Part shown: positions 30,287 through 48,142 of the stretch, in pieces
Position numbering within the stretch: the stretch's first letter is position 1
How the letters are laid out: every line of letters starts with the position of its first letter
Notes under the pieces: generated by a model
The model's input: only the letters and a program-made list of their open reading frames with translations
What the model was told of the DNA's origin: nothing
Database searches by the model: none
Position numbers and translations under genes: made by a program
NCBI GenBank assembly: GCA_034722095.1
Contig: JAYENM010000169.1
Coordinates: 1 to 51,508, forward strand
Direction: 5' to 3'
DNA from: a candidate division WOR-3 bacterium
GTDB lineage: Bacteria; Hydrothermota; UBA3073
Length of the DNA stretch: 51,508 nt

Positions 30287-33200
30287 ATGAGCAATAATCG
30301 TTATAAAATACTTAAGAAAGTCGGTTCAGGTGGAATGGGCATTGTCTACAAAGTTCTCGATACACAAACCAACACACACCTCGCCCTCAAAACTTCCTCC
30401 AGCAAGCATATCAAAAATGAATTTCTGACACTCTCAAAACTTCACCATCCAAATATTGTAAAAGTCTACGACTTCGGAGTTATGGAGTGCAATCCGCCTC
30501 AGGCGGATGTTGTTGCAGATACGACCTTATCACAGCATTCCAAACAATACTTCTTCACTATGGAGTACATTGAGGGTAAAAATTTGTATGACCTGTTTAG
30601 AGATAATCTACCCAAGACCAGAGCTGAGTATCAACTTCTTTACTCCATAATACTCCAGATCTGTGATGCACTCAGGCTCATTCATTTTCACAAACTTATC
30701 CATTGTGATATCAAACCCAGCAATATACTGATACAATTCTCCGAAACTCAGGAACCCAGAACTGTTATAACAGACTTCGGACTTATAGAGAAAGAGGCAG
30801 CCCAAAAACTCAAGGGCACTCTCCAATACATCGCCCCTGAAGTTCTCAAGGGCGAGAAAATCGATCAAGGTGCAGACCTCTTCTCCCTGGGTGTGACCAT
30901 CTATCAGGTACTAACACATCATCTTCCCTTTGCGGGTGGTAATGCTCTCACTCTTATCAAGCAACATACAAAAGATAAAATAAAACCACCAAAGGAATTC
31001 AACCCTGCAGTACCGGGAAGGTTAAACGATTGTACCTTGGATCTTTTGCAACCCAAACCTCGAAGAAAAACTAAGTCCATAGATGAACTTAAAAAATTTA
31101 TCCATCAAATCTCAGGAAAATCTCAGTTAGCCACTGTCTTTACATCCCTACTGATAGGCAGGCAAAAGGAACTTTCCATCCTTAAAACTACCTGGCAGGA
31201 AGTTAAAACTAACAAGGGTAGGGCTATCTTACTATACGGTGAAAATGGAATAGGAAAGACGAGACTCTTGCAGGAGTTTAAGCCCTACGCCCAAACCGAA
31301 GGAGCACTGATAAAGGAATTCGATTCGAGAAGAAACATTCTAAAAACTTTTACTGATATTATTGAGCAAAAACCCCTTGGCGGAAAGGAGCTAAGCCTGT
31401 TTGAGAAAATAACAAACAAACTCCTGAACGAAGCAAAACAATCCCCACTCCTTCTCGTAGTCGAAGACCTTCAGTCCCAGGGAGAGACTGCCCTTAACTT
31501 GATGGAGTATCTTATAAGGTCTATTGGATCTGCTCCAATTCTTTTAATCATCACTTCTTCGGATACAAAACTCATTAGCAAAGATGTGCAATCCATAAAT
31601 TACCTTAACCACATCAATCTTATACCCCTCAACCCACATGATACTACCACACTGGTCAAGTCTATGCTCTTAACAGATAACAAGGTGAAAGACATCGGGA
31701 CTCTAATTCATACCCATACCGAAGGAAATCCCTTCCTCATCACGACATTTACACGAAGCCTGGTAGAAAACAAAATTCTTGAAAGAACCAAAGGAAAGTG
31801 GACTCTATCGGGCGATAAGCTAAAAACCTATCAGGCTCCAAAAGACATCAAAGACTTCATAGCCCCTGCCTTAAGAGGATTAAGTGAGGATGAATTTAAT
31901 CTGTTAAAAATAGGGACTCTCCTCAAAAATTACTTTATCCTTCCTGTTCTAAAGGACATAATCAGCGTAAAAATCCATACTCTCTACAGTCTCCAGAAAA
32001 AAGGCCTTATCATAGAAAAACCTGCTGAAAACTACTCTTTTACCCATCAAATGGTCTCCAATGTGATTGAAAAGAATATACCTGTCAGCGAAAGAGTTTC
32101 ACTTCATAGAAAAATAGCCAGCATACTGGAACATCGGTTTCAGCAAAACCTTGAGAGAATAGCCCCTGACCTCACTTATCACTATTCACAGGCAAATGAA
32201 ACTACCAAAGTATACAAATTTGCTCTCCTGTCTGGAGAAAGGGCAAAAAACACATCGGCAAATACGGAAGCAGCGGAATACTTTGAACTTGCACTATCTC
32301 TTGCCGACAAATTGGGTAGAAAAAGAAAGAAATTCACCCTTTATGAAACCCTCGGTGATCTCTATCGCACTATGAGCAAATATCAGGACGCCCTCATAAA
32401 ATATGAATCCGCTCTTCCTCTTGTAACCGATGATTCCTGTACAAGAATTTACAGAAAAATAGGAATGATATACAGAGACCAGCAAAATTATGACAAGGCA
32501 CTGAATTACTTTCAGAAAGGATTTAAGGTGCCCTCCAAAGATGCATCTCAAAAGGTGCTCCTCCTCAGTGACATTGGATGGGTTCATATGTGCCTCGGAG
32601 ACCTTAACAAATCCCTGTCTTACTCTCAAAAAGCAATCAAAATGGCAGAAGAATACAATGACCAATTTGGCTTGAGTTATACCTATAGCACTCTCGGTAC
32701 ACTCTGCTTCCAGAAAAGCAACTACGAAAAAGCAATGCAATATTACAGAAAAACACTAAAGGTCGCTAAGAAAATTAAGAATCAAGACATCATTGAGTCT
32801 ACCTCATACAACCTTGGACAAATCTCGTGGAAAACAGGAAAACCGAAGGAGGCAGAGAACTTCTACAAAAAGGGCCTAAAAATCCAAGAAAAAAAAGGCA
32901 ATCCTCATATTCTTGCCCGATATTATAACGCCCTTGGAATCCTCGCGCAAGAACAGGGAGATTTTGATAACGCCCTGACACATTATACATCAGCCCTTGA
33001 TATATTCAAAAGAATAGGAAACAAACAAAGAATAGCCACAGTCCACATGGCACTGGGTACTATGTACCAGGAGAGAGGCGACTTAGACAATGCAATTGAT
33101 AACTATAAAGCAGCCCTTTTGATATCTCAGGAGACAAAAGACACGCCTCTAATTGCACGGATATACAATAACCTTGGTAATCTCTACAAGGATACAGGGA

Positions 33201-35365
33201 ATTTAACAAAGGCAATCAAAAACCTTGAAAAAGCCCTCAAAATTGAGAAGCAAGGCTCGGATTGGAGAGATACAGCATCTACCCTGCACAATATAGGAAT
33301 AGTCCGTATGCTCCAGGGCAAGATGGAGGATGCTTCCAAATTCCTTCACCAGAGCTTCCATCTTCACCAGGAACAGAAATCAAAGAAAGGAATGGCAGAG
33401 GTATGTCCAACTTTGGCTGAATATTATTTGCTTACAGGCAACATCACTACTGCCGAAGACTACTGCCTGAAAGGGATTAAACTGTGTGAAGAAATCAATG
33501 ACTACCTATATCTCGGTATTACCCAAAGGGTCCTTGGCACTGTATACTCCCGGAAAGCAGAAATGGATAAGGCGCTCATCTCTTACTCCAAATCCATAGA
33601 GACTCTAAAAAAGTTGAAGACAGAACACGAACTCGCCAAAACCCTCCTTATTGCCGGAGAAGAGGTCTTTTCTAATAGAGGAAAAATAGGTAGAAAATTC
33701 TGGCGAGAAGGGCTTCTTGACCAGACCTTAACAAGACTAAAACAAGCAAAGCAAATATTCAAAAACCTGAATGCAAGTGCAGATTTAAAGAGAGTGAATT
33801 CTCTGATTTCGAAACTTGAAAAATATTCCCCCCTCATCCTTGAACCCATTCCTGGAGAAGACAAAAAACTTAAGACCCTTTACAGAATGAGCCAAATAGT
33901 AAACTCAACAATGGAGATAAATGAGCTGCTTGAAAAAATACTGGACCTCACCATTGAAACTATGGAAGCAGAAAGAGGCTTCATACTACTGAGAGAAGGA
34001 AAAGAACTTATGGTAAAAACCGCCAGAAATATGGATAAACAATCAATTGCTGATATGTCAGACTTTTCAAAAACCATAGTGGAGAATGTAGAAAAGAAAG
34101 GCGAGCTGATAATCACTTCCAATGCCCAGACAGAGCCAAGATTTAAAGATAGGAAGAGTATAGCCAAATTCAAACTCCTTTCAATTCTGTGCGTTCCCTT
34201 TAGAATTAAGGACCATGTCGTTGGTGCCATCTATATTGATGACAGAAGAAAAAGAGATGCCTTTACCTCAGAAGACCTTGCATTCCTTCGAGCCTTTTGT
34301 GATCAGGCTGCCATAGCTCTCGAAAACGCCAAGTTAATAGAAGAACTAAGGACCGCCAACAAACTACTTGAACTCGAAAATATTGATATGCAAGACCAGA
34401 TTACTCATCTAAGAACCGCCGTGGAAGAAAGATATAGCTTTGGTAACCTGATAGGAAAAAGTGAACCAATGCAAAAGGTATACGATGCCCTTGAAAAAAT
34501 CATCAAATATGACTCCTCTGTAATAATTGAGGGTGAAACAGGGACAGGTAAGGAGATTGTTGCCAATATCATCCATTATAACGGACCCAGAAAGGACAGG
34601 AATTTTATCGTTGTAAATTCAAGTGCTATACCAGAGGAACTCCTTGAATCAGAACTATTCGGCTATGTAAAAGGAGCATTCACTGGGGCCACCCACGATA
34701 AGCAGGGACTCTTTGAAATAGCAGACGGTGGAACTATCTTCTTCGACGAAATTGCAGAATTAAACCCAAATCTCCAAGTCAAACTACTAAGGGTTCTTCA
34801 GGATGGTGAACTGCGAAGGGTTGGAGCCACAAAAAGTAAAAAGGTTGATGTAAGAGTGATAGCAGCAACCAACAGAGACTTACAAAGGCAAGTAAAACAG
34901 GGAAAATTCAGAGACGACCTCTACTACAGGTTAAATGTAGTGTCAATCAAGATGCCCCCTCTAAGAGAAAGAAAAGAAGATATCCCAGTTCTTGCAGCTT
35001 ATATCCTTCGCAAATTCAGAAAGAAACTCCACAAGAATGTAACCGGGTTTACACCAGAAGCCCTTTATCTCCTTCAGAACTACCAATGGCCAGGTAATGT
35101 AAGAGAACTCGAGAATGTCATAGAAAGGGCTATTGTTATGGCAGAAGGTAAAAAAATCACCGAGAAAGATTTGCCAAAATCATTAACTCAAGGAGAACCT
35201 GGCGAAGAAAAAGAAACCACCCTTCTCTGTTCCCTTGTCGATATAGAAAAGAGATGTATCAAGACAGCTCTTAAAGCCTCAGGAGGTAACAAGAGAGAGG
35301 CAGTAAAGTTACTTGGTATATCAAGACCAACCCTCGATAGAAAGATGAAAAGATACGGTTTATGA
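30287..35365 (+). CDS. 1692-aa fusion: Ser/Thr protein kinase + STAND/AAA_16 P-loop NTPase + long TPR array + GAF + sigma54-interaction AAA+ domain + Fis-type HTH (bacterial enhancer-binding protein)
   Basis: Kinase motifs are GSGGMGIVYKV, LALKT, HCDIKPSNIL (30701-30724), ITDFG and YIAPEVL. The P-loop is LLYGENGIGKTRLL (Walker A at 31238-31261). TPR_12-like repeats span roughly 32.2-33.7 kb (for example YNNLGNLYKDTGNLTKAIKNLEKALKI). GAF covers about 33.9-34.3 kb. The EBP core has GETGTGKE (34532-34555), ESELFG and an intact GAFTGA (34673-34690). The C-terminal HTH is REAVKLLGISRPTLDRKMKRYGL. Confidence 0.85.
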   Translation: MSNNRYKILKKVGSGGMGIVYKVLDTQTNTHLALKTSSSKHIKNEFLTLSKLHHPNIVKVYDFGVMECNPPQADVVADTTLSQHSKQYFFTMEYIEGKNLYDLFRDNLPKTRAEYQLLYSIILQICDALRLIHFHKLIHCDIKPSNILIQFSETQEPRTVITDFGLIEKEAAQKLKGTLQYIAPEVLKGEKIDQGADLFSLGVTIYQVLTHHLPFAGGNALTLIKQHTKDKIKPPKEFNPAVPGRLNDCTLDLLQPKPRRKTKSIDELKKFIHQISGKSQLATVFTSLLIGRQKELSILKTTWQEVKTNKGRAILLYGENGIGKTRLLQEFKPYAQTEGALIKEFDSRRNILKTFTDIIEQKPLGGKELSLFEKITNKLLNEAKQSPLLLVVEDLQSQGETALNLMEYLIRSIGSAPILLIITSSDTKLISKDVQSINYLNHINLIPLNPHDTTTLVKSMLLTDNKVKDIGTLIHTHTEGNPFLITTFTRSLVENKILERTKGKWTLSGDKLKTYQAPKDIKDFIAPALRGLSEDEFNLLKIGTLLKNYFILPVLKDIISVKIHTLYSLQKKGLIIEKPAENYSFTHQMVSNVIEKNIPVSERVSLHRKIASILEHRFQQNLERIAPDLTYHYSQANETTKVYKFALLSGERAKNTSANTEAAEYFELALSLADKLGRKRKKFTLYETLGDLYRTMSKYQDALIKYESALPLVTDDSCTRIYRKIGMIYRDQQNYDKALNYFQKGFKVPSKDASQKVLLLSDIGWVHMCLGDLNKSLSYSQKAIKMAEEYNDQFGLSYTYSTLGTLCFQKSNYEKAMQYYRKTLKVAKKIKNQDIIESTSYNLGQISWKTGKPKEAENFYKKGLKIQEKKGNPHILARYYNALGILAQEQGDFDNALTHYTSALDIFKRIGNKQRIATVHMALGTMYQERGDLDNAIDNYKAALLISQETKDTPLIARIYNNLGNLYKDTGNLTKAIKNLEKALKIEKQGSDWRDTASTLHNIGIVRMLQGKMEDASKFLHQSFHLHQEQKSKKGMAEVCPTLAEYYLLTGNITTAEDYCLKGIKLCEEINDYLYLGITQRVLGTVYSRKAEMDKALISYSKSIETLKKLKTEHELAKTLLIAGEEVFSNRGKIGRKFWREGLLDQTLTRLKQAKQIFKNLNASADLKRVNSLISKLEKYSPLILEPIPGEDKKLKTLYRMSQIVNSTMEINELLEKILDLTIETMEAERGFILLREGKELMVKTARNMDKQSIADMSDFSKTIVENVEKKGELIITSNAQTEPRFKDRKSIAKFKLLSILCVPFRIKDHVVGAIYIDDRRKRDAFTSEDLAFLRAFCDQAAIALENAKLIEELRTANKLLELENIDMQDQITHLRTAVEERYSFGNLIGKSEPMQKVYDALEKIIKYDSSVIIEGETGTGKEIVANIIHYNGPRKDRNFIVVNSSAIPEELLESELFGYVKGAFTGATHDKQGLFEIADGGTIFFDEIAELNPNLQVKLLRVLQDGELRRVGATKSKKVDVRVIAATNRDLQRQVKQGKFRDDLYYRLNVVSIKMPPLRERKEDIPVLAAYILRKFRKKLHKNVTGFTPEALYLLQNYQWPGNVRELENVIERAIVMAEGKKITEKDLPKSLTQGEPGEEKETTLLCSLVDIEKRCIKTALKASGGNKREAVKLLGISRPTLDRKMKRYGL

Positions 35366-35370
35366 TAAAG

Positions 35371-35387
35371 TGTAACGTTTTGTTACA
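35371..35387. promoter_or_regulatory. candidate enhancer (UAS) palindrome A: TGTAAC-gtttt-GTTACA
   Basis: The extended perfect 9-bp arms are AAGTGTAAC/GTTACACTT (35368-35390), 3 nt after the EBP stop codon. It could double as a weak terminator hairpin because TTTTT follows. Confidence 0.55.
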
Positions 35388-35490
35388 CTTTTTAGAGAGT
35401 TAAGACTAATCCTCCCTTCAGGGAAATTTCTCCCAACTCCTTAAAAAGGCATAACTTGTGAAAATTCGACAAAACTGACGACAAGAGAAA

Positions 35491-35507
35491 TGTAACAAAA
35501 TGTTACA
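35491..35507. promoter_or_regulatory. candidate enhancer (UAS) palindrome B: TGTAAC-aaaat-GTTACA
   Basis: It belongs to a 32-nt unit (GAAATGTAACAAAATGTTACACTTTTTTGAT) that is repeated in tandem. Confidence 0.6.
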
Positions 35508-35522
35508 CTTTTTTGATGGAAA

Positions 35523-35539
35523 TGTAACAAAATGTTACA
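35523..35539. promoter_or_regulatory. candidate enhancer (UAS) palindrome C: TGTAAC-aaaat-GTTACA
   Basis: It is identical to site B and 32 nt (about 3 helical turns) downstream. It lies 103 nt upstream of the sigma54-type promoter. Confidence 0.6.
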
Positions 35540-35625
35540 CTTTTTTGATAACAAAGAATAACACTCTTCTAAAGGGATTTTGTAAGTCCTTACAAATGCA
35601 GCCATTACGCAAGTTCTCGTTCAAT

Positions 35626-35642
35626 CTGACACGCTTTTTGCT
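35626..35642 (+). promoter_or_regulatory. sigma54-type (-24/-12) promoter, CTGACACGCTTTTTGCT
   Basis: It matches TGGCACG-N4-TTGCW at every conserved position and in spacing, except that the second G of the -24 GG is A. The identical 17-mer recurs at 42311-42327. It lies the right distance downstream of palindromes next to an EBP gene. Confidence 0.55.
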
Positions 35643-35684
35643 CCTTATAAATAATGAGTAAATAAACTAAAGGAGGTGAGTAGA

Positions 35685-35834
35685 ATGAGTAAATTTCTAA
35701 AAAAGTTGTGCTTGATGGCAATAGCACTCATCCTTGTCCTATTAACAGCCACTATGGCATTTGGAGGTAACATCCACCCACCAATTGACCCTCGACCACC
35801 CACAGTTTATGGTATTGGCGGTAGTGGCAGATAA
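35685..35834 (+). CDS. 49-aa secreted pre-peptide (not in the ORF track): MSKFLKKLCLMAIALILVLLTATMAFGGNIHPPIDPRPPTVYGIGGSGR
   Basis: I translated it by hand. A consensus SD AGGAGGTG (35671-35678) lies 6 nt before the ATG. The peptide has a Lys-rich n-region, a 15-residue hydrophobic core and an A-x-A-like TMA|FG site, then a Pro/Gly-rich tail of about 23 residues. TAA is at 35832-35834 and a strong hairpin follows immediately. Confidence 0.65.
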   Translation: MSKFLKKLCLMAIALILVLLTATMAFGGNIHPPIDPRPPTVYGIGGSGR

Positions 35835-35839
35835 ATCAT

Positions 35840-35875
35840 AAGGGAGGGTGCAGAACCCCTTCTTTACCCTCCCTT
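35840..35875 (+). terminator. intrinsic-terminator-like hairpin after the peptide gene
   Basis: The perfect 10-bp stem AAGGGAGGGT (35840-35849) pairs with ACCCTCCCTT (35866-35875) around a 16-nt loop. TGTATCTTT follows, which is a modest T-tract. Confidence 0.55.
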
Positions 35876-36207
35876 TGTATCTTTGCGTTATACGACACAG
35901 ACAGGCAATTTTTGACAGTTAAGCCAGTGCTATCTTGGGGTATATACGATTTGCCCGATTCATATTTGAAATTGTCTTTTGTGGTCAAAGTGATATTTTT
36001 TATCATTTGTGGTAGTGTCAAATAGAATATGAAAGAATATGACAAACCACAGTCATACGACCCGTCCTTACGGATCCGTATGGATATGGGAGGTCACAGA
36101 GTAAATTTAATTCTCTGTGCTCTCCAAAAGAGTTTCCTCTGAAAGATAAAACGGAAAAGATAATTGCCTGTGCTATTGAAGTCCATTCAACTTTAGGTCC
36201 AGGTCTG

Positions 36208-36597
36208 TTGGAGAGTGTTTATGAGGAAGCGTTGGCGTATGAATTTGAGTTGAGGGGAATAAATTTTGAAAGGCAAAAAGAGATTATGCTTGAGTATAAA
36301 GGGAAAAGCATAGGTCCGCATCGGATAGATTTTTTAATAGAAGAACAGGTGATATTAGAGATAAAGGCAACAGAGGGAATGAAGAAGATATTTGAGGCAC
36401 AGGTTTTAACATATATGAAAGCAATAAAGAAAAAAGTGGGACTACTTATAAATTTCAATGTAGAAAGGTTGAAAGACGGGATAAAAAGATTGGTCTTATC
36501 CGTGCGGATCCGTATGAATAAGAGGTCACAGAGGGGAGGGAAAAGAATCTTTTGTAATTCCTTAATACTGAACATTCTCTGTGTTCTCTGTGGTTAA
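36208..36597 (+). CDS. GxxExxY-family protein (PD-(D/E)XK-like), lacking a canonical start and with a repeat-encoded tail
   Basis: The family hallmark GPGLLESVYEEALAYEFELRGINFERQKEI...HRIDFLIEEQVILEIKA is present. Homology (KTEKIIACAIEVHSTL) extends upstream of the track's TTG start to about 36139. There is no ATG, GTG or TTG in frame after the stop at 36040-36042, only CTG. The last 30 or so codons are translated from the flanking repeat. Confidence 0.6.
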   Translation: MESVYEEALAYEFELRGINFERQKEIMLEYKGKSIGPHRIDFLIEEQVILEIKATEGMKKIFEAQVLTYMKAIKKKVGLLINFNVERLKDGIKRLVLSVRIRMNKRSQRGGKRIFCNSLILNILCVLCG

Positions 36598-36634
36598 ATT
36601 TTTGACAATACTTCATTTGTAACTGGGGGATATT

Positions 36635-36988
36635 ATGTATCAGGAAAATAAAATAGAAGCACTCCTCGCCCTTAAAGAAAGTGGAAGAATTGTGAAAATG
36701 CTGAAGTTCTATCTGAGGCCAAAGGCGGTTGAGGTCGGGAGCCGTTCAACAACATTTGAGCAAACCTTTGACAAAAGTAGTTATATGCTTACCCTGATGA
36801 CTGGGAAAGAAACACTTACCTTTGAACGACAGTTAGGACAAGGCACTCCATGGATATCCATAAGTTCACCCAAAGAAATGGCCCTTTCAGACAGAAAACT
36901 ACCCAATTTTCTGAATTCCATTATCTCTGAAGACGACATGAGAAAGCAGATACAAGAACACATAAACTCCTTTATGAAAGGGAGGTAA
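36635..36988 (+). CDS. hypothetical protein (117 aa), no recognisable motifs
   Basis: It is an intact ORF with a GGGGGA SD, in the same orientation as the downstream sensor gene. No family is recognised. Confidence 0.45.
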   Translation: MYQENKIEALLALKESGRIVKMLKFYLRPKAVEVGSRSTTFEQTFDKSSYMLTLMTGKETLTFERQLGQGTPWISISSPKEMALSDRKLPNFLNSIISEDDMRKQIQEHINSFMKGR

Positions 36989-37041: not shown

Positions 37042-38256
37042 ATGGAGAAAAATTTAAACATATCGGTTTCTTCCTTTTGTGAAGGAAAATCCGCAAAGAT
37101 ATTGACCAACATCAACGAGAGTAAGCACACAGAGGACGAGTTACATAAAGTTAACCGTGCACTTAAGCTCCTCAGTGAATGCACCCAGGCCGTGTTGCGT
37201 GCTGTGGAGGAATTGGAAGTGCTGGATGAGATATGCCATATCCCCGGTGAATGCAATCAGGCAGTGCTGTGTGCCGTGGAGGAATCGGAGCTACTGCATG
37301 AGGTATGCCGAACCATCGTGGAAGTCGGCGGATATCGAGTGGCATGGGTTAGTTCAACCGAAGAGGATAAAGATAAGACCGTGCGACCTGTGCTGTTGGC
37401 GGGATACGGGAAGGATTACCTTGACATAATAGACATCTCAAGGGTAGATACTGAAAGTGGTAGTGGTCCCACCCGCAGAGTTGCACTTCCTTTGATTGCT
37501 CACGGTCAGACCTTAGGTGTACTTAATATCTATGCCGCCGAGCCAGATGCCTTTGACCCACAAGAAGTGAGTCTGCTGACAGAACTGGCAAATTACCTGG
37601 CGTATGGCATCTCTTCCCTTAGAGATTGCTCTGAACTTAAGCAGGCTGAGGAGACACTGATAAAATCCCACCAGGTATACGAAAAACTCGTTAATACCAT
37701 TGATGGTATCGTATGGGAAGCAGATGCACAAACCCTCCAATTTTATTTTGTCAGCAAGCAAGCTGAACGACTTCTCGGCTATAGTACCCGATGTTGGCTT
37801 AAAGAAGCTGCATTCTTCGAGAACCATCTCCACCCGGATGATCGGGAACGGGTCATTGCCCTTTTGAAGAAAACAGCCGCAGAAAAGAAAACTCACGAGT
37901 TTGAATTCCGAATGTTAGCAGATGATGGACGCCCTGTGTGGCTAAGAAATACTTTCACCGTGTTTGTTAAGGACGATAAACCCATTAGGCTATGCGGAGT
38001 GATGATGAACATCACGGAACGCAAAAGGTTGAAAGAGATCATAAGAAAAGCCTATGAGCAGATAGAGCAACATATTGAGCAGTTTGCTATTTTAGTTGAG
38101 GGAACAAAAAATCCTCTGGCGGTAATAGATGGCTTAGCCAGATTAAAAGGCGATGAAACATCAAAAAAGATAAACAAGCAGGTTGAAAGGATCGAGAAAA
38201 TATTAAAACGGATTGATAGTGAATGCCTCGACACGAGAAGGTTAGAGATTTTTTGA
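37042..38256 (+). CDS. GAF-PAS sensor protein without a recognisable catalytic output domain
   Basis: GAF is marked by LLHEVCRTIVEVGGYRVAWVS...LPLIAHGQTLGVLNIYAAEPDAFDPQEVSLLTELANYLAYGI. PAS is marked by VNTIDGIVWEADAQTLQFYFVSKQAERLLGY...HPDDRERV...WLRNTFTVF...GVMMNITERKR. The C-terminal coiled coil has ILVEGTKNPLAVI where a HisKA H-box would sit, with no His, and there is no HATPase domain. Confidence 0.7.
   Translation: MEKNLNISVSSFCEGKSAKILTNINESKHTEDELHKVNRALKLLSECTQAVLRAVEELEVLDEICHIPGECNQAVLCAVEESELLHEVCRTIVEVGGYRVAWVSSTEEDKDKTVRPVLLAGYGKDYLDIIDISRVDTESGSGPTRRVALPLIAHGQTLGVLNIYAAEPDAFDPQEVSLLTELANYLAYGISSLRDCSELKQAEETLIKSHQVYEKLVNTIDGIVWEADAQTLQFYFVSKQAERLLGYSTRCWLKEAAFFENHLHPDDRERVIALLKKTAAEKKTHEFEFRMLADDGRPVWLRNTFTVFVKDDKPIRLCGVMMNITERKRLKEIIRKAYEQIEQHIEQFAILVEGTKNPLAVIDGLARLKGDETSKKINKQVERIEKILKRIDSECLDTRRLEIF
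37175..37309 (+). repeat. in-frame 72-nt tandem duplication inside the sensor gene
   Basis: GTGAATGCACCCAGGCCGTGTTGCGTGCTGTGGAGGAATTGGAAGTGCTGGATGAGATATGCC (from 37175) aligns with GTGAATGCAATCAGGCAGTGCTGTGTGCCGTGGAGGAATCGGAGCTACTGCATGAGGTATGCC (from 37247). In protein terms this is ECTQAVLRAVEELEVLDEIC / ECNQAVLCAVEESELLHEVC. Confidence 0.85.
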
Positions 38257-42055: not shown

Positions 42056-42072
42056 TGTAAAATTTCTTTACA
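42056..42072. promoter_or_regulatory. variant enhancer palindrome A': TGTAAA-atttc-TTTACA
   Basis: The extended arms are AAGTGTAAA/TTTACACTT (42053-42075). Its relative position is the same as site A of the first module. Confidence 0.5.
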
Positions 42073-42175
42073 CTTTTCGGGGTGTTATGGCTAACCTTTC
42101 CTTCAAGGGGATTTCTCCCAAGTCCTTAAAAAATCAAAACTTGTAGAAATTCGACAAAATTGGCAGTCGGAGGAG

Positions 42176-42192
42176 TGTAAAGTTTCTTTACA
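42176..42192. promoter_or_regulatory. variant enhancer palindrome B': TGTAAA-gtttc-TTTACA
   Basis: It lies 120 nt after A', exactly as B lies after A in the first module. Confidence 0.55.
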
Positions 42193-42207
42193 CTTCCATC
42201 AAGAAAA

Positions 42208-42224
42208 TGTAAAGATTCTTTACC
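42208..42224. promoter_or_regulatory. variant enhancer palindrome C': TGTAAA-gattc-TTTACC
   Basis: It lies 32 nt after B' and 103 nt before the promoter. These are the same spacings as in the first module. Confidence 0.5.
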
Positions 42225-42310
42225 ATTTTTAGGTCGCCATGACTGCCCCCTTTAGAGGAATTTTTTTCAAATCCCTGTCAGTTCACGCATTACGTAGATT
42301 CTCATTCTTT

Positions 42311-42327
42311 CTGACACGCTTTTTGCT
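42311..42327 (+). promoter_or_regulatory. second sigma54-type promoter, CTGACACGCTTTTTGCT
   Basis: The 17-mer is identical to 35626-35642. Confidence 0.55.
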
Positions 42328-42391
42328 TTTATAATATAGTGAAAGGTTGATTTCTGATTATGGGAATAAGGGTCCGAGGGAAGTGTTTTAT

Positions 42392-42517
42392 ATGAAATGT
42401 GTCCCTTACTTCCAACACAGCGAAGAAGATAATACCTTTACGCCCTCAATCCTGTTAATACATATGACTGGGAGTATTTTTATTTTCTTCTATGCGGGGT
42501 TTACAAGGTACGTCTAG
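42392..42517 (+). CDS. candidate 41-codon micro-ORF in the conserved leader (MKCVPYFQHSEEDNTFTPSILLIHMTGSIFIFFYAGFTRYV)
   Basis: It is hand-translated and not in the track. It is homologous to 38377-38529, sharing PSI(F/L)LI...G(G/S)IFIFF. Coding status is unproven. Confidence 0.3.
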   Translation: MKCVPYFQHSEEDNTFTPSILLIHMTGSIFIFFYAGFTRYV

Positions 42518-42520
42518 AAT

Positions 42521-42550
42521 TGCCCTGCGTGTCTGGTGATGCGCAGGGCA
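42521..42550 (+). other. 9-bp GC-rich hairpin between the micro-ORF and the BNR gene (possible attenuator/terminator)
   Basis: TGCCCTGCG (42521-42529) pairs with CGCAGGGCA (42542-42550). It starts 4 nt after the micro-ORF stop and is followed by TGATGGGTTGTTTAT. Confidence 0.4.
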
Positions 42551-42589
42551 TGATGGGTTGTTTATGAAGTAGGCATCCTGGAGGTTTTT

Positions 42590-44869
42590 ATGTATCTTTT
42601 TATTATAATTCAGTTATTCCTTTCACCAGTCTGGGAGACACACGGACCCTATGGAGGAGAGACTATATGCATTGCCATAGACCCAAATAAAACTCTCTGT
42701 ATGTATGCGGGGACAGGGAATCCTGAATTAATAACAACGAATGGAGACGGTGTTTATGTAAGCACAGACGGTGGAGAAAACTGGAACCATACCTCACTCG
42801 GCTCTACTTTTGTTTGGGATATTGCAGTTGATTCTCATGGAGAAGTGTATGCTGCTACTCGTGGGTATGGAATTTTCAAGAGCACAGACAGAGGCACCAC
42901 CTGGAATTCAATAAATAACGGACTGTCATGTCTATATATATCTGATATTGCTATTGAGCCTCTCAATGACAGCGTTGTCTATGTAGGGACCGGAGACAAG
43001 TTTTATGGTAGTGTGTGGGATTGGTCAATGGATGGTATATACAAATCTACAGATAGAGGAGAAACCTGGAGTAGACTGGGACTGGACGGCACGACTGTAT
43101 CTTCCATTGTGGTGCATCCTGTGGCGCCAGAAACTCTCTATGCAGCGGTATATGATGTACCATGGGATAATACATCAAGTGAAGTAGGGATTTACAAGTC
43201 CTGCGATTACGGGGTTACCTGGATGTACAAAGCAGATATAGCTGCGAATGATTTAGTTATAGATCTGGTAAATCCCAATACAATTTACGCTGCCCCCAAG
43301 TGGGATTGGGATCACTTCTGGAAAAGCACGGATGGTGGAGAAACCTGGACATACTGTTATATGGGTATTTTTACGAATGAAATACGGACAATAGCGATTG
43401 AGCCATTCAACGACAGCATTATCTATATGGGTTGTGCCTCATATCCCACAATGGATGAAAAATTCGGTGGTATTTATAAATCTATAGATGCAGGGGATAC
43501 ATGGAGCGAAGTGATGGTAGGTATGCCAGACGAGCCTGTACATTCTATTGTTATTGGTATTGACAATCCCGATAAGGTCTATGCTACATGCAGTGGTCCT
43601 GGGGTGTATAAAAGTGTTGACAAGGGAGAAACCTGGGCATGGTCGTCTAATGGTATGAGGCTGCAGATAGTGACAGATTTGAGTTCGGCAAACGAAGACA
43701 TCTTTGCTGCGACAAGGTCCGGCGTATATAAAAGAGAGAGCTCAAGTGAAGTGTGGCATAATCGGAGCTCTGGGATAAGACAGGTTAGGACTATGTGCAT
43801 CGCTGCCGCGCCGTCTGCACCTGATACTATTTACCTCGGCACATTTGTCGGTGCGGGACCAACGCCATCTTATAGAAGTTTTGATGGTGGGGAGACTTGG
43901 ACCGGGTGTGCAGGAGGAGGAATTTGTCATATCCAGGTTAATCCTCTCAATCCCAGTGTATACTATGCTGTAGAGAAATTCAATTTTAGAAAAGTTTACA
44001 AATCAACTGATGCAGGCTCCACTGTGACCACTACCTTGGATACCACTAGTCCCGGATGTGTAGCAATAGATCCTGTTGATACAAACATAGTCTATGTAGG
44101 TGGCGGTTCTGGCAGCGCATGGGTTCTCAAAACTGTTGAGGGGGGCACAAGTTGGATAAGTATCTCCCAAGGGTTGGATTCAGGATTTGTCTGCGATATA
44201 GAGTTAGATAATTTCAACGAGGACATCCTCTATGCCGTTGTGAATGCCGATCTCTTTGGATGGGAAGGTAATGGAAAACTCTTCAGGTATAACGGAGATT
44301 TATGGGAAAGAGTAGGGGTTGATCTCCCAGAATTGCCATTCTCCTCCCTTAAGGTGGATCCAGTACTTCAGAGTGTTCTGTATATTGGCACCTATGGAGG
44401 AGGTGTATACAGAAGCATTGATGGAGGGATAGTGTGGAATGAGTTGAACGAGGGCCTCGGGAACCTCTTTGTAAACTGTATCATGTTAGACCCTCTCGAC
44501 CACACGAAGATATATGCAGGAACTAATGCCGGTGTATATTCAATCACCTCTCCCCCCGGTATTGAGGAAGAGAGTGCTATTACTCTCTCTCTTCTCACGG
44601 TCTCTCCAAATCCCTTCAGCACAACTACCGCTATCACGCTATCAGACTATCAGGCTAACGCTTCACGCTTTACGCCTTACACCTTACGCATCTACGACCT
44701 CACAGGCCGCCTCGTCAAACGATTTACGATTTTCGATTCACGGCTTACGAGTATAGTCTGGAATGGAAGAGATGACTCTGGCAATTCTTTACCTCCAGGG
44801 GTCTATTTCGCAAGACTTGAATCTGGAAAGACTGAATATAAAGCTGAGAAGATTGTAAAATTGAGGTAA
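42590..44869 (+). CDS. BNR/Asp-box (sortilin/Ycf48-like) beta-propeller protein with T9SS sorting domain
   Basis: At least 11 Asp-boxes are present: STDGGENW, STDRGTTW, STDRGETW, SCDYGVTW, STDGGETW, SIDAGDTW, SVDKGETW, SFDGGETW, STDAGSTV, TVEGGTSW and SIDGGIVW. The tail is VSPNPFSTTTAI...IYDLTGRLVKRF...GVYFARLESG...KIVKLR. The N-terminus MYLFIIIQLFLSP lacks a basic n-region. Confidence 0.8.
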   Translation: MYLFIIIQLFLSPVWETHGPYGGETICIAIDPNKTLCMYAGTGNPELITTNGDGVYVSTDGGENWNHTSLGSTFVWDIAVDSHGEVYAATRGYGIFKSTDRGTTWNSINNGLSCLYISDIAIEPLNDSVVYVGTGDKFYGSVWDWSMDGIYKSTDRGETWSRLGLDGTTVSSIVVHPVAPETLYAAVYDVPWDNTSSEVGIYKSCDYGVTWMYKADIAANDLVIDLVNPNTIYAAPKWDWDHFWKSTDGGETWTYCYMGIFTNEIRTIAIEPFNDSIIYMGCASYPTMDEKFGGIYKSIDAGDTWSEVMVGMPDEPVHSIVIGIDNPDKVYATCSGPGVYKSVDKGETWAWSSNGMRLQIVTDLSSANEDIFAATRSGVYKRESSSEVWHNRSSGIRQVRTMCIAAAPSAPDTIYLGTFVGAGPTPSYRSFDGGETWTGCAGGGICHIQVNPLNPSVYYAVEKFNFRKVYKSTDAGSTVTTTLDTTSPGCVAIDPVDTNIVYVGGGSGSAWVLKTVEGGTSWISISQGLDSGFVCDIELDNFNEDILYAVVNADLFGWEGNGKLFRYNGDLWERVGVDLPELPFSSLKVDPVLQSVLYIGTYGGGVYRSIDGGIVWNELNEGLGNLFVNCIMLDPLDHTKIYAGTNAGVYSITSPPGIEEESAITLSLLTVSPNPFSTTTAITLSDYQANASRFTPYTLRIYDLTGRLVKRFTIFDSRLTSIVWNGRDDSGNSLPPGVYFARLESGKTEYKAEKIVKLR

Positions 44870-44890: not shown

Positions 44891-47800
44891 ATGCTTAAGA
44901 AAATAGCAAGTATTATACTGGCGATAGGTTTTGCTCATATCGTCTTTGCCGATGTAACTCATAATGTCTATTTCTCATCATCGGATTTGACCTTCAGACA
45001 GGAGAAGGGATACGACATCGTGGAGTTAAAGGGATGCAACCTGATGGATGTGGTTGGCGAGCCCATGCTTTCTGTAAGATATATGAACCTCATTATCCCA
45101 GCGGGAAATAAGGTATCCAGAATAGAGTTTCCATTAGCCAATTCACAAAACATAGGAACCTACAACATCTATCCAGCGCAGCCACCAATCCCTGTAAGTA
45201 GTAGTGAACCGCCTGAATGGGTGGAACCAGACCCTCTTGTGTATAGTTCTGACGAACCCTATCCAGGCAAACTCGCAGAGGTTGTCCATGAGGGATATTT
45301 TAACGGGAATAAGATTGTGATGCTTGCGGTCTATCCACTCCAATGGATGCCAAGCACTGGAGAGCTCGTGTTGTATGACCACATACAGTTAAGACTCGTG
45401 TTGGAATCATCATCCGAAACTCCAGTCTATCCACAGATTATGACCGAGCAGAGTTACAAACTCTATAAATCTGCGTTGAGTTCGTTGATTGCAAATGACA
45501 AAGACAAGAGTGCCTATGGATATGAACCTACTGTTGTGACTCCACAGTCTGCTCCTGCTGAGTTTATACTACCTGCATCTTCTACAGAGATAATAGAGTA
45601 TATGATAATTACCCCCAATGCACTCACCTCATCTTTTAACTCTTTTGTGGAATGGTTATGGAAGAAGGGGATAAGAGCAGGGATTATCACTGTAGAGGAT
45701 ATACTTGCTTCATATCCTGGGGTTGACGATGCCCAGAAGGTGAAGAGATGCATCTGGAAGTGGTGGCAATTTAACTCTCTCACTTATGTGCTTCTCGCTG
45801 GAGATGATGGTATTGTACCTTTTAGATACGGTTGGGCCAGGAATAATCTAAATTTTCCACCACAGACTCGCGTAGATTCATTTTATATCATTCCTACTGA
45901 TCTTTACTTCTCGGATCTTTCTGGCAACTGGGATGTTGATGGAGACAATCGCTGGGGTGAGCCAGAAGATAGTATTGATATATATCCTGAGGTATATGTA
46001 GGGAGAGTGTTGGTACGGAACATGGAAGAAGTTAACAACTGGTTACAGCGGGTGTTGAATTACGAGCGAAATCCAGGAAATGCGTCTCTTATGAAAGATG
46101 TTATGTGGAGTTATCAAGAATATGACCCAGATACATCACATATGGGAGGAAATTTCATCAACTTTCAATTTCTTGTTAATCAGGCTATAGCGCATTTTCC
46201 TGAAGACTATACCCATTATCATTATTATGCTATGAGCTCCACTGAGAATCTATCTGGTCTGAATGAGGGATACGGGCAGGTATGTCTTTACGCCCACGGT
46301 TGGCCAGATAGATGGACAACGAGAACCTGGCCTGTTAGTTGGGTGTTTTCTTGGCCATCCGCTGGTGGCGGAGACCTGTACCATCTCTCTAATCCAAACA
46401 AGTATGGTGTTGTGTATTCAATTAGTTGTATGAATGCAATGTTTGATAAGATCTTGGAGGATGTTTGGCATTGCGAGGATACTACAATTGCAGATGGATT
46501 TACAGATGCTTATACAAATGGAGGCGAAGCCGCCTTTCTTGGAAACAGCAGATACGGATGGTCCCATACCTCTCCTTCTCTTCACCGGTGTTTTCTGGAT
46601 GTTCTATTCAATTCAAGCGACCTGTCTTCCAAGGTTGGATATGCTGAGGGAATATCCAAAACTCTTGGTGGGTCTAGGTATGTTTGGTATTCTCACAACC
46701 TGTTTGGCTCTCCGGAGACTCCTGTCTGGACTGATGTGCCACCACCTTTGACAGCAAGCCATCCATCCCGATTATATGTGGATCCAGAGATTACTCTGCT
46801 CCTCACTGTAACGGTTACATCTAATGGAAGTCCTGTAGAGGATGCTCTTGTTTGCCTATACAAGCCTTCAGATGATCCAGTAATTTACAAAAGAGGCTAT
46901 ACCGATGCAAATGGTGAGGTCACTTTTGATCTCCGTATTCGAAACACGGGATATCTATATGTTACTGCGACCAAACACAATTTCAAACCTTACGAAGGTA
47001 GAATTCTGTGCACCTACCCTCCCTGTCCCTTTCTCTATACCTATAATGGTTCAGAATTCATAGAGGATAACAATATCCTTTCAGGTTCTGGAACTGTAGA
47101 AGATTGGTATAAGCTGAGGGAGAAACCCCTTAAAGATGAAAATAGATATAGGTTACAGATAAAGGAGAATAACGATGAGCATTCATTCTTTGACAGGGTG
47201 AGACTTTATGCTATTGACCATCCAGACTCTGTTGAAGTATTCGTGACACAGGATGGAGAGATTGTCTCCGTTTCTATGATGTCCGCTTCTCAATCAGTTA
47301 TTGGGGAGGATGGAGTTGATTATACTACAGTGCTTCTTGACAGAGATAGTGTATGGGTTGAGGCAAATGAGGTTGAAAAGATCACCGCTGAATTTGGAGG
47401 AACTAATGGAGGAGACTACGTCATACTCGCACCACCAGGGCCGAAGCCAAGACTTATGGTTGAAGAAGCAAATGGTTCAAGTTTTGAAACTGTCGGTTCC
47501 ATTCGTGGAAGAGAGAACCCATCCTATGAGGTGCTTCCTCTTACAGTTTCATCTCCCGAGGAGGTGAGCCTGAGATTCACATTCACTGATGTCTCCCAGA
47601 GACTTGACTATATACGGTTTGGGAAGAGAAACAATGCTCCATATCATATAAAACCCTGTCCACTTGTGGCTGCTACCCACTCTGACATTGGTTCTGTCAA
47701 GCAGAAACTACTTATTGATGATGAGAACTATGCAGAACTTCTTCCCTGTGATACGATAACACTTGAGTTTGCAGTTGTTGATATAGAACCTGGATGGGTG

Positions 47801-48142
47801 AGAGATTTTGTGTTTGTATCAAATGGATATTATGTAACAGAAGGCAAAGGCGGTTCACAGACTGCATATAGCAGTATTCCTTTGGTTCATTCTCTATCAC
47901 TATATCCAAATCCAGCAAAGAATGATATGAATATCAGATTTGGTATACCGAGAGAAGAGAAGGTCTCTCTTAAAATTTATGATGTATCAGGCAGAGAGGT
48001 AAAGATGCTTGTAGATGACAGACTTGAAGCAGGTTATCATATTATAAAATTGGATAGTGAGAATCTTCCCTCTGGCATCTACTTCGCAAGGCTTGTGACC
48101 AATAACTATGAGGCGACAAAGAAGCTCGTGCTGATGAAGTAG
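44891..48142 (+). CDS. peptidase C25 (gingipain-like cysteine protease) with propeptide, unknown C-terminal module and T9SS sorting domain
   Basis: It has a signal peptide and a C25 propeptide-like N-terminus (FRQEKGYDIVELKGC...GEPMLSVRYMNLIIP). Other markers are YMIITPNALTSSFNSFVEWLWKKGIRAGIITVEDI, YVLLAGDDGIVPFRY, FSDLSGNWDVDGDNRWGE, the His region VCLYAHGWPDRW and the Cys region VVYSISCMNAMFD. The tail is YPNPAKNDMNIRF...IYDVSGREVKML...GIYFARLVTN...KLVLMK. Confidence 0.8.
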   Translation: MLKKIASIILAIGFAHIVFADVTHNVYFSSSDLTFRQEKGYDIVELKGCNLMDVVGEPMLSVRYMNLIIPAGNKVSRIEFPLANSQNIGTYNIYPAQPPIPVSSSEPPEWVEPDPLVYSSDEPYPGKLAEVVHEGYFNGNKIVMLAVYPLQWMPSTGELVLYDHIQLRLVLESSSETPVYPQIMTEQSYKLYKSALSSLIANDKDKSAYGYEPTVVTPQSAPAEFILPASSTEIIEYMIITPNALTSSFNSFVEWLWKKGIRAGIITVEDILASYPGVDDAQKVKRCIWKWWQFNSLTYVLLAGDDGIVPFRYGWARNNLNFPPQTRVDSFYIIPTDLYFSDLSGNWDVDGDNRWGEPEDSIDIYPEVYVGRVLVRNMEEVNNWLQRVLNYERNPGNASLMKDVMWSYQEYDPDTSHMGGNFINFQFLVNQAIAHFPEDYTHYHYYAMSSTENLSGLNEGYGQVCLYAHGWPDRWTTRTWPVSWVFSWPSAGGGDLYHLSNPNKYGVVYSISCMNAMFDKILEDVWHCEDTTIADGFTDAYTNGGEAAFLGNSRYGWSHTSPSLHRCFLDVLFNSSDLSSKVGYAEGISKTLGGSRYVWYSHNLFGSPETPVWTDVPPPLTASHPSRLYVDPEITLLLTVTVTSNGSPVEDALVCLYKPSDDPVIYKRGYTDANGEVTFDLRIRNTGYLYVTATKHNFKPYEGRILCTYPPCPFLYTYNGSEFIEDNNILSGSGTVEDWYKLREKPLKDENRYRLQIKENNDEHSFFDRVRLYAIDHPDSVEVFVTQDGEIVSVSMMSASQSVIGEDGVDYTTVLLDRDSVWVEANEVEKITAEFGGTNGGDYVILAPPGPKPRLMVEEANGSSFETVGSIRGRENPSYEVLPLTVSSPEEVSLRFTFTDVSQRLDYIRFGKRNNAPYHIKPCPLVAATHSDIGSVKQKLLIDDENYAELLPCDTITLEFAVVDIEPGWVRDFVFVSNGYYVTEGKGGSQTAYSSIPLVHSLSLYPNPAKNDMNIRFGIPREEKVSLKIYDVSGREVKMLVDDRLEAGYHIIKLDSENLPSGIYFARLVTNNYEATKKLVLMK

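Follow-up and report, generated by a model that had tools for sequence, protein, structure and literature searches.

A conserved small gene for a predicted Sec-exported, proline-rich peptide beside a sigma-54 activator gene in candidate division WOR-3

The DNA analyzed here, referred to as the window, covers positions 1–51,508 of contig JAYENM010000169.1 (assembly GCA_034722095.1), a stretch of 51,508 nucleotides from a candidate division WOR-3 bacterium. Our subject is a 49-codon open reading frame (ORF) at positions 35685–35834 of its forward strand, together with the signalling genes among which it lies. An earlier note on this DNA, made from the letters alone, had described the ORF as an unlisted gene for an exported peptide; it is indeed missing from the ORF track used for that note, but it already has an NCBI entry (U9R01_04860, hypothetical protein) under a candidate division WOR-3 metagenome-assembled genome (MAG). 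Judged by its conservation in relatives, the ORF is a real, conserved, clade-restricted gene of Stahlbacteria/WOR-3, and the full translation of its pre-peptide is MSKFLKKLCLMAIALILVLLTATMAFGGNIHPPIDPRPPTVYGIGGSGR. The gene has the following parts.

35670–35679, forward strand: Shine-Dalgarno (SD) sequence AAGGAGGTGA, in which GGAGG is kept in 13 of 13 loci
35685–35834, forward strand: peptide ORF of 49 codons, with ATG at 35685–35687 and TAA at 35832–35834
35685–35759, forward strand: predicted signal peptide MSKFLKKLCLMAIALILVLLTATMA, codons 1–25, 25 residues long in all members of the family
35760–35834, forward strand: predicted mature peptide FGGNIHPPIDPRPPTVYGIGGSGR, 24 aa plus the stop codon

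The SD core, AGGAGGTG at 35671–35678, is spaced exactly 6 nt from the ATG, as had been noted before, and the 10-nt anti-SD match (AAGGAGGTGA) is the joint best among the 31 genes of the window. A GTG start at 35676 was rejected because it lies inside the SD. A word-indexed search identified two 49-aa homologues with 80–82% identity, and a profile search of 1.84 billion representatives added six further homologues (E = 1e-20 to 1e-7). After a second profile search the family comprised 15 clusters at 90% identity, and additional alleles from the fetched loci resulted in approximately 18 distinct peptides of 45–61 aa. One hit of the representative search, the 471-aa repeat protein P0010, was discarded as spurious, since it aligned at the hydrophobic stretch only.

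Nucleotide sequence was available for 13 loci. Frame +1 alone is free of stops in all of them, while the other five frames contain stops in most; GGAGG is found 5–9 nt 5' of the ATG in each of the 13; and the differences in peptide length are all in-frame, including a (PRPPGV)x3 expansion in two alleles. The gene for a 117-aa protein downstream served as a yardstick of divergence. Its product falls to ~47% identity with the copy in the window (12 loci compared) and stands at ~47–52% in the divergent loci; frame, start and SD of the peptide gene are kept even there, which excludes retention of the frame by chance. The claim of a genuine small gene, for which loss of the frame in relatives had been named as the refuting observation, thus stands. 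A chance ORF within a conserved regulatory region would account for the absence of third-position bias among the substitutions in the six closest genomes and for the 3' non-coding flank being better conserved than the ORF: over the six close loci, nucleotide identity is 87% in the peptide ORF, 94% in the 3' spacer and 97% in the next gene. It would not account for a frame, start and SD retained in 13 of 13 loci, for the stops in the five other frames or for length changes that are in-frame in every case, and we regard the chance-ORF explanation as effectively refuted. The earlier note had also proposed a test for purifying selection. The frame proved conserved, but selection is relaxed, with a ratio of nonsynonymous to synonymous substitution rates (dN/dS) of 0.25–0.73 for the peptide in the six closest genomes. 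On these figures the peptide is under relaxed constraint, or is diversifying at some sites, outside a fixed framework that consists of M-x-K-x-L, IA, L-x-x-A-T-x-x-F and then P-x-x-P-x-P-P. Some dN/dS values of the mature part exceed 1, but with so few and such short sequences a claim of diversifying selection was dropped.

The 319-nt spacer between the peptide gene and the gene upstream of it contains a promoter module, as listed below.

30287–35365, forward strand: 1692-aa sigma-54 activator, assigned from Pfam matches and motifs
35371–35387, no strand: activator site 1, the 17-bp palindrome TGTAACGTTTTGTTACA, 256 nt 5' of the –24 element
35491–35507, no strand: activator site 2, TGTAACAAAATGTTACA, 120 nt past site 1 and 136 nt 5' of the promoter
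35523–35539, no strand: activator site 3, TGTAACAAAATGTTACA, 32 nt past site 2 and 104 nt before the –24 element
35627–35642, forward strand: sigma-54-type –24/–12 element TGACACGCTTTTTGCT (TGACAC-N5-TTGCT), with A in place of the second G of the consensus at –24

The sigma-54 consensus is TGGCAC-N5-TTGCW, and the inferred transcription start lies near 35652. TGTAAC-N5-GTTACA palindromes gave six matches against 0.24 expected. Of the 12 copies that have a promoter, 10 contain exactly this 16-mer at the –24/–12 element, even when the sequence on either side has diverged, and the divergent loci L018, L020 and L024 are among them; two-position differences were observed in L001/L002 (GCAATTTGCT) and in L019 (TGACACATTTTTTGCT), and the copy designated L004_1 has no promoter of its own. 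Among related loci with an upstream region of their own, the element is positioned 25–58 nt 5' of the ATG, and one to three palindromes of either half-site type were detected further upstream. The earlier note had mentioned neither the sigma-54 promoter nor its three activator sites, and likewise neither the activator gene next door nor the constant 117-aa partner.

The same 16-mer occurs a second time in the window, at 42312, where 0.03 matches would be expected, and it belongs to a second promoter with the following surroundings.

42056–42327, forward strand: paralogous promoter module, with three TGTAAA-N5-TTTACA palindromes (42056, 42176 and 42208) and the 16-mer at 42312
42590–44869, forward strand: BNR-repeat cargo protein of the type IX secretion system (T9SS), by Pfam, behind the second promoter
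44891–48142, forward strand: C25-peptidase T9SS protein, by Pfam, behind the second promoter

The offsets of 120, 32 and 104 nt are identical at both promoters of the window, and the two regions of ~300 nt are paralogous. The BNR-repeat protein and the C25 peptidase each have a T9SS sorting domain. A pattern scan of metagenomes identified one metagenome in which promoters of this type stand before the peptide operon, before a REC-only gene and before genes for exported proteins. We consider it quite probable, from these shared elements, that the adjacent activator drives the peptide gene through sigma-54, and that the gene belongs to a small regulon with many secreted proteins. An rpoN gene adjoins the cassette in the relative L009; none is present in the window, the only part of this genome that was covered.

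Several side observations concern these promoters. The RpoN of L009 (11040–12392, reverse strand) has the RpoN box ARTTVVKYR, the canonical box being ARRTVAKYR, and all promoters of the regulon have TGAC in place of TGGC at –24; the box and the –24 element may co-vary. Orthologous peptide promoters differ in their half-sites, which are either TGTAAC or TGTAAA (window 35371–35539, L001 7470–7777, L007, L009 and window 42056–42223), the L001 promoter is a mosaic of both, and HTH_8 is the most variable activator domain, at 67–84% amino acid identity. This suggests turnover of operator and helix-turn-helix (HTH) together, or recombination between paralogous promoters. At L005 (11456–13284) a module of three palindromes and a sigma-54 element stands before the gene of a 396-aa DUF7689 repeat protein, replacing a second pair of peptide and 117-aa genes; the module has evidently recombined onto a different cargo. 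The 260-nt leader behind the second promoter (42328–42589) is ~80% conserved in the metagenome loci L021 and L023 and holds an open frame, MKCVPYFQHSEEDN... (42392–42517), that has no SD; the leader may be an RNA element of the 5' untranslated region or another small ORF. Tandem repeats of ~60 nt (…AAGTCTCATACGAGTCTCGTNCAAGTCCCTGTTAA…) were observed upstream of peptide/117-aa cassettes in WOR-3 genomes, at L004 9290–9530 and L005 11130–11440.

The first 25 residues of the peptide display the three regions of a Sec-type signal, as the earlier note had supposed from MSKFLKK and the hydrophobic core behind it, and these regions are conserved across the family: (i) the n-region, MSKFLKK, has a charge of +3, with K3 in 16 of 18 members (R or N in the other two) and K or R at position 6 in all; (ii) the h-region, L8–L20, has a mean Kyte-Doolittle value of 3.35 over 12 residues; and (iii) the c-region, TATMA, places Thr at –3, as in 17 of 17 tabulated members, and Ala at –1, where 15 of the 17 have Ala or Ser. 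Export with cleavage after Ala25 is, from these features, probable. The sole cultured WOR-3 strain possesses inner and outer membranes (PMC12285271); hence, WOR-3 being diderm, Sec export would deliver the peptide to the periplasm. Other assignments of the N-terminus and C-terminus were examined and rejected. An NCBIfam match to CpxP (E = 0.0055) spans the signal peptide alone. The FGG at residues 26–28 does not mark a double-glycine leader, since the leader is hydrophobic and the GG varies (FGA, FTG, FAK). A lipoprotein was dismissed because no lipobox surrounds Cys9, a position at which other members have W or L, and the Gly-rich C-terminus, with no hydrophobic segment and no Pfam domain, does not fit a PEP-CTERM or T9SS sorting signal. 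The peptide as a whole matched no family in Pfam, NCBIfam or PADLOC.

The N-terminal segment could instead remain uncleaved, so that the product would be a small membrane protein with a signal-anchor and a Pro-rich periplasmic tail that modulates an envelope protein or a sensor. MgrB, the 47-aa feedback inhibitor of PhoQ, would be the model. Residues L8–F26 form a run of 19 hydrophobic or small residues with a mean Kyte-Doolittle value of 2.68, and the N-terminal 25 residues are conserved at least as well as the tail (mean identity 61% vs 55%). Pro or Thr at –1 in two members disfavours an aligned cleavage site. The gene would also be induced by the signalling system around it, as mgrB is by PhoQ/PhoP, and it resembles MgrB in its length below 50 aa, its N-terminal hydrophobic segment and its short periplasmic tail. 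There is, however, no sequence relationship to MgrB, the sensor here is cytoplasmic, and the cleavage features suggest release over anchoring: the strictly hydrophobic core is just 12–13 residues long, as cleaved signals typically have it; all tabulated members have Thr at –3, and 15 of the 17 have Ala or Ser at –1; and an aromatic residue that does not vary at +1 points to a fixed start of the mature peptide. We regard anchoring as unlikely.

Within the predicted mature part, Phe or Tyr at +1 and a core of P..P.PP, in full P-[VI]-x-P-x-PP, are conserved in at least 80% of the members. Across the family the mature parts measure 20–36 aa and have no conserved Cys or amphipathic segment. This allele does contain the PRPP motif to which the earlier note drew attention, but across the family the Arg is not conserved: R, K, D and E all occur before PP. 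The likeness to proline-rich antimicrobial peptides (PrAMPs) that the note had built on this motif is accidental. The peptide does resemble apidaecin, oncocin and Bac7 in being short, Pro-rich and Cys-free, with PRPP in this allele and (PRPPGV)x3 in two; unlike them, it varies between R, K, D and E at the basic position, has a mature net charge of –2 to +3 across the family, several members being acidic, and is of bacterial origin with a Sec signal. The suggestion of a precursor of a ribosomally synthesized and post-translationally modified peptide (RiPP) fails as well, since none of the 13 contexts encodes a modification enzyme and a classical Sec signal serves as the leader. The note had itself remarked on the absence of such an enzyme, and the genes found around the peptide gene in these contexts encode regulators, the 117-aa orphan and T9SS cargo. 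The peptide is neither a PrAMP nor a RiPP precursor, and its features do not qualify it as a class II bacteriocin, PEP-CTERM protein or T9SS cargo.

The region immediately 3' of the gene contains two conserved features.

35840–35875, forward strand: hairpin, read as a terminator or attenuator, 5 nt past the stop codon
35876–36005, forward strand: conserved spacer toward the 117-aa gene, 94% identical over six close loci

The hairpin, which the earlier note had correctly placed directly behind the ORF, has arms of 16 nt and a loop of 4 nt, with a folding energy of –24.7 kcal/mol (z = –4.8; 0 of 200 shuffles fold as well). It is kept in seven loci, with two compensatory pairs, and is missing after the mid-operon copy L004_1. 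Partial termination at the hairpin is fairly probable on its structure. A promoter or operator serving the genes further on may lie in the spacer; no covariation supporting an RNA structure was detected in it, and an Rfam scan of 35300–36700 returned nothing relevant. The position of the hairpin bears on a further alternative, in which the ORF is a cis-acting leader whose translation through the Pro codons, where elongation factor P (EF-P) could matter, controls read-through of the hairpin, the peptide itself being functionless. A ribosome terminating at the stop codon, 5 nt short of the hairpin, would overlie the 5' arm, and the PP-rich core is the most conserved feature of the mature part. 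A leader ORF would nonetheless have no need of a conserved signal peptide and cleavage features; no alternative anti-terminator pairing was found at the hairpin, L004_1 retains the peptide without it, and the ORF is too short for an arrest of the SecM type. These points render the leader-ORF explanation highly improbable. Export-monitoring arrest as in SecM or VemP was rejected in its own right, because at codon 49 the signal would still be in the exit tunnel of the ribosome.

Downstream of the spacer, the cassette continues with two genes.

36635–36988, forward strand: 117-aa orphan protein, downstream of the peptide gene in 13 of 13 contexts
37042–38256, forward strand: GAF-PAS signalling protein, by Pfam, the third gene of the cassette

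The partner measures 126 aa in one context and ends at the contig end in L022. The pairing holds even in a WOR-3 genome with no activator nearby, where the genes are ordered 117-47-117 ... 47-117. The 117-aa protein has no transmembrane (TM) segment, is 94–98% identical among close genomes and has a dN/dS of 0.08–0.52. No match was obtained in Pfam, NCBIfam, PADLOC or, by a sequence search with a profile, the PDB. An AlphaFold2 (AF2) model built from 5 sequences was unreliable, with a mean predicted local distance difference test score (pLDDT) of 44.7, and Foldseek with this low-confidence model returned nothing at E <0.4, which is uninformative. In Stahlbacteria-type loci the third gene encodes a GAF-PAS protein; more distant loci have a gene for a REC-only response regulator in its place, and every locus that extends far enough has one or the other. 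Among the related loci examined, only this window carries an insertion of ~610 nt (36011–36620) between the 3' spacer and the 117-aa gene, with a PDDEXK_3 gene (Cas4-like fold) at 36208–36597. It is flanked by TCATTTGT at 36003–36010 and 36613–36620, and looks like a small mobile cassette with a target-site duplication.

The constant pairing invites two explanations that assign the 117-aa protein a role of its own. According to the first, the peptide is a Sec-dependent bacteriocin or toxin and the 117-aa protein its immunity factor. A small pre-peptide with a Sec signal followed by a gene of ~110 aa would fit, as would the tandem cassette duplication and extra orphan 117-aa genes of one WOR-3 genome (L004, L014, L015), a peptide that evolves faster than its neighbours, and a strong SD and terminator suggestive of high expression. 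Class II bacteriocins such as enterocin P show the same arrangement of a Sec pre-peptide before a gene of ~100–120 aa, in duplicated cassettes. Unlike theirs, however, the mature peptide here is much shorter (20–36 aa), neither cationic nor amphipathic (charge –2 to +3) and devoid of conserved Cys; neither protein matches a bacteriocin or immunity family in Pfam or NCBIfam, and there is no route across the outer membrane. Moreover, the putative immunity protein is nearly invariant and more conserved than the variable 'toxin', the opposite of toxin-immunity co-diversification. We judge this explanation quite improbable.

According to the second, which proceeds by analogy, the pre-peptide would act while still in the cytoplasm, binding the 117-aa protein as a regulator of the activator, and its removal by Sec export would report the secretion load to a regulon that consists for the most part of secreted T9SS cargo. 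A soluble, TM-less partner is found in 13 of 13 contexts, and it is strongly constrained (dN/dS 0.08–0.52; 94–98% identity in close genomes); other members of the regulon are exported, and the signal sequence is unusually well conserved. The arrangement resembles PspF/pspA and HrpRS/HrpV, which likewise combine an activator gene, palindromic sites, a –24/–12 promoter and a possible feedback protein of ~115 aa. It differs from them in that the 117-aa protein has no homology to PspA or HrpV, the first gene encodes an exported peptide, and the –24 element has GA. The case is one of pure analogy, with no homology to HrpV, PspA or secretion chaperones and an AF2 model that is unusable (pLDDT 44.7). 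It also leaves the conserved Pro core of the exported part unexplained, and L004 has more 117-aa genes than peptide genes. Such export-coupled feedback is in our view rather unlikely.

The activator upstream of the peptide gene is the other large component of the module. Its domains are, in order, a Ser/Thr kinase, AAA_16 (resembling the signal transduction ATPases with numerous domains, STAND), ~550 aa of tetratricopeptide repeats (TPRs), GAF, sigma-54 AAA+, AAA_lid_14 and HTH_8 (Fis-type). The Pfam E-values were 5e-72 for Sigma54_activat, 9e-42 for Pkinase, 6e-16 for GAF and 6e-14 for HTH_8, and, within the TPR region, 6e-67 for TPR_12, 7e-42 for TPR_1 and 3e-29 for TPR_MalT; a Walker A motif is found at residue 1416 and GAFTGA at residue 1463. 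The protein has no TM segment and is predicted to be cytoplasmic. It is encoded directly 5' of the peptide gene in 9 of 13 loci, those in which the flank was captured. The two genes are neighbours in the window and in L001/2, L007/8, L009, L010, L011, L018 and L019, but not in L004. Among the five closest orthologues the TPR region is 80–86% identical, compared with 93–98% for kinase and GAF (85% and 94% in the L007 activator), and it is the most variable large domain. In L009 (3536–8612) the activator is called as two ORFs of 1602 and 108 aa, which implies a frameshift, from a pseudogene or an assembly error.

The gene, the promoter module, the SD, the signal features, the Pro core, the hairpin, the pairing with the 117-aa gene and the shared regulon can be read from the sequence and its comparison with relatives, and we propose the following chain of events to connect them. 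Of the targets of the upstream kinase/STAND/TPR/GAF activator, the peptide gene would be the closest and probably also the one expressed most strongly. Once activated, the regulator would bind the three palindromes 104–256 nt upstream and open the sigma-54 promoter, with transcription starting at ~35652, and a leader of ~32 nt with a perfect SD would support high translation of the 49 codons. The hairpin would stop most transcripts while the rest read through into the 117-aa and GAF-PAS genes, so that the peptide would be in excess over both proteins. Sec would export the pre-peptide post-translationally, and a cut by signal peptidase I (SPase I) after Ala25 would free the 24-mer into the periplasm. 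There the P-[VI]-x-P-x-PP core, probably a polyproline-II helix, would be the binding epitope, with loosely constrained flanks. The peptide, co-induced with secreted T9SS proteins, would then serve as an extracytoplasmic ligand; most likely it would signal to its own module, either as feedback or from cell to cell.

A signalling role is favoured because the cassette sits among signalling genes, because it is co-regulated with secreted proteins of the 'public-good' type, and because no other large domain of the activator evolves as fast as its TPR region. It is favoured also by likeness to the RRNPP systems, for which PMC10075063 lists five generic features: a pro-peptide of 10–100 aa, Sec secretion, a receptor of 250–500 aa, TPRs and direct gene neighbourhood. 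Four of these are found here, namely the size (45–61 aa), the TPRs, the adjacency and, as far as the n-, h- and c-region features indicate, Sec secretion; the receptor, at 1692 aa, falls outside the range (PMC10075063). As in Rap-Phr, NprR-NprX, PlcR-PapR and AimR-AimP of Firmicutes and phages, a gene for a Sec pro-peptide lies beside that of a cytoplasmic TPR regulator, in the regulator's own neighbourhood or regulon. Unlike those regulators, which are of the XRE-HTH/TPR type, the one described here joins a sigma-54 AAA+ activator to a Ser/Thr kinase, a STAND NTPase and GAF, and it is about three times too long. The host is a diderm WOR-3 bacterium with no Opp importer nearby, the cassette has a constant third gene (117 aa), and the conserved part is an internal polyproline core instead of a C-terminal 5–10-mer. 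The cassette is hence not a member of RRNPP, though it may work like such a system.

Several observations weigh against the proposed chain. At the peptide promoter the spacing and the –12 TTGCT fit the consensus, but the –24 element has GA in place of the near-universal GG. Constraint on the mature part is weak (dN/dS 0.25–1.9), and the cleavage site is rendered less certain by P0006 and P0008, which have Pro and Thr, respectively, at –1. The peptide varies, with no co-variation in the nearly invariant 117-aa partner, which argues against the two being a specific recognition pair. No receptor or processing protease was identified, and no Opp importer is encoded in the window. For a 2.3-kDa peptide released into the periplasm of a diderm there is no obvious way through the outer membrane, and expansion of the core by repeats is unusual for a receptor-specific pheromone. 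With these points considered, we rank first the chain as a whole, an activator-induced exported peptide ligand that acts as a feedback or cell-cell signal, as a tentative proposal that falls short of being probable; the step that makes the peptide a ligand or signal, assessed by itself, is to be taken with slightly more reserve still.

A small exported peptide beside a regulator is a hallmark of Gram-positive peptide signalling, and to our knowledge almost nothing comparable has been described from diderms or from uncultured phyla like WOR-3/Stahlbacteria. The most far-reaching form of the proposal is a peptide communication or feedback circuit in a diderm candidate phylum, built from parts unlike those of Firmicutes. 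In it, a giant cytoplasmic kinase/STAND/TPR sensor would switch on, through sigma-54, the gene of a Sec-exported polyproline peptide; the amount of this peptide would gate the expression of T9SS-secreted proteins, and the 117-aa protein would be a new relay component. We regard this form as doubtful. The analysis defines a complete conserved module of sensor/activator, three operators, TGAC-type sigma-54 promoter, peptide, terminator, 117-aa orphan and co-regulated secreted proteins. Even if the peptide were a mere envelope factor, the locus would provide two new protein families and the first defined sigma-54 regulon for the phylum, as well as a natural case for –24 recognition by a variant RpoN box.

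The peptide family is confined to Ca. Stahlbacteria/WOR-3 MAGs and metagenomes. In a scan of one genome per species (185,579 species) the cassette was found in two Ca. Stahlbacteria and two WOR-3 MAGs only, and the literature on small peptides of WOR-3/Stahlbacteria and on kinase-fused sigma-54 activators yielded nothing on this system. As for the wider locus, a block of ~22 kb (window 8154–29951) lies between a ROK gene and the activator gene, encoding DUF3160, a GH94 phosphorylase, glucoamylase-like proteins, a sugar ABC transporter, a TonB-dependent receptor, PorV-like and T9SS-tail proteins and LacI; in L001, L002 and L009 the ROK gene stands immediately before the activator gene. Within this block the overlapping ORFs 8154–9755 and 9662–10588 match DUF3160 residues 1–398 and 443–632, respectively, and are probably one frameshifted gene or the result of a sequencing error.

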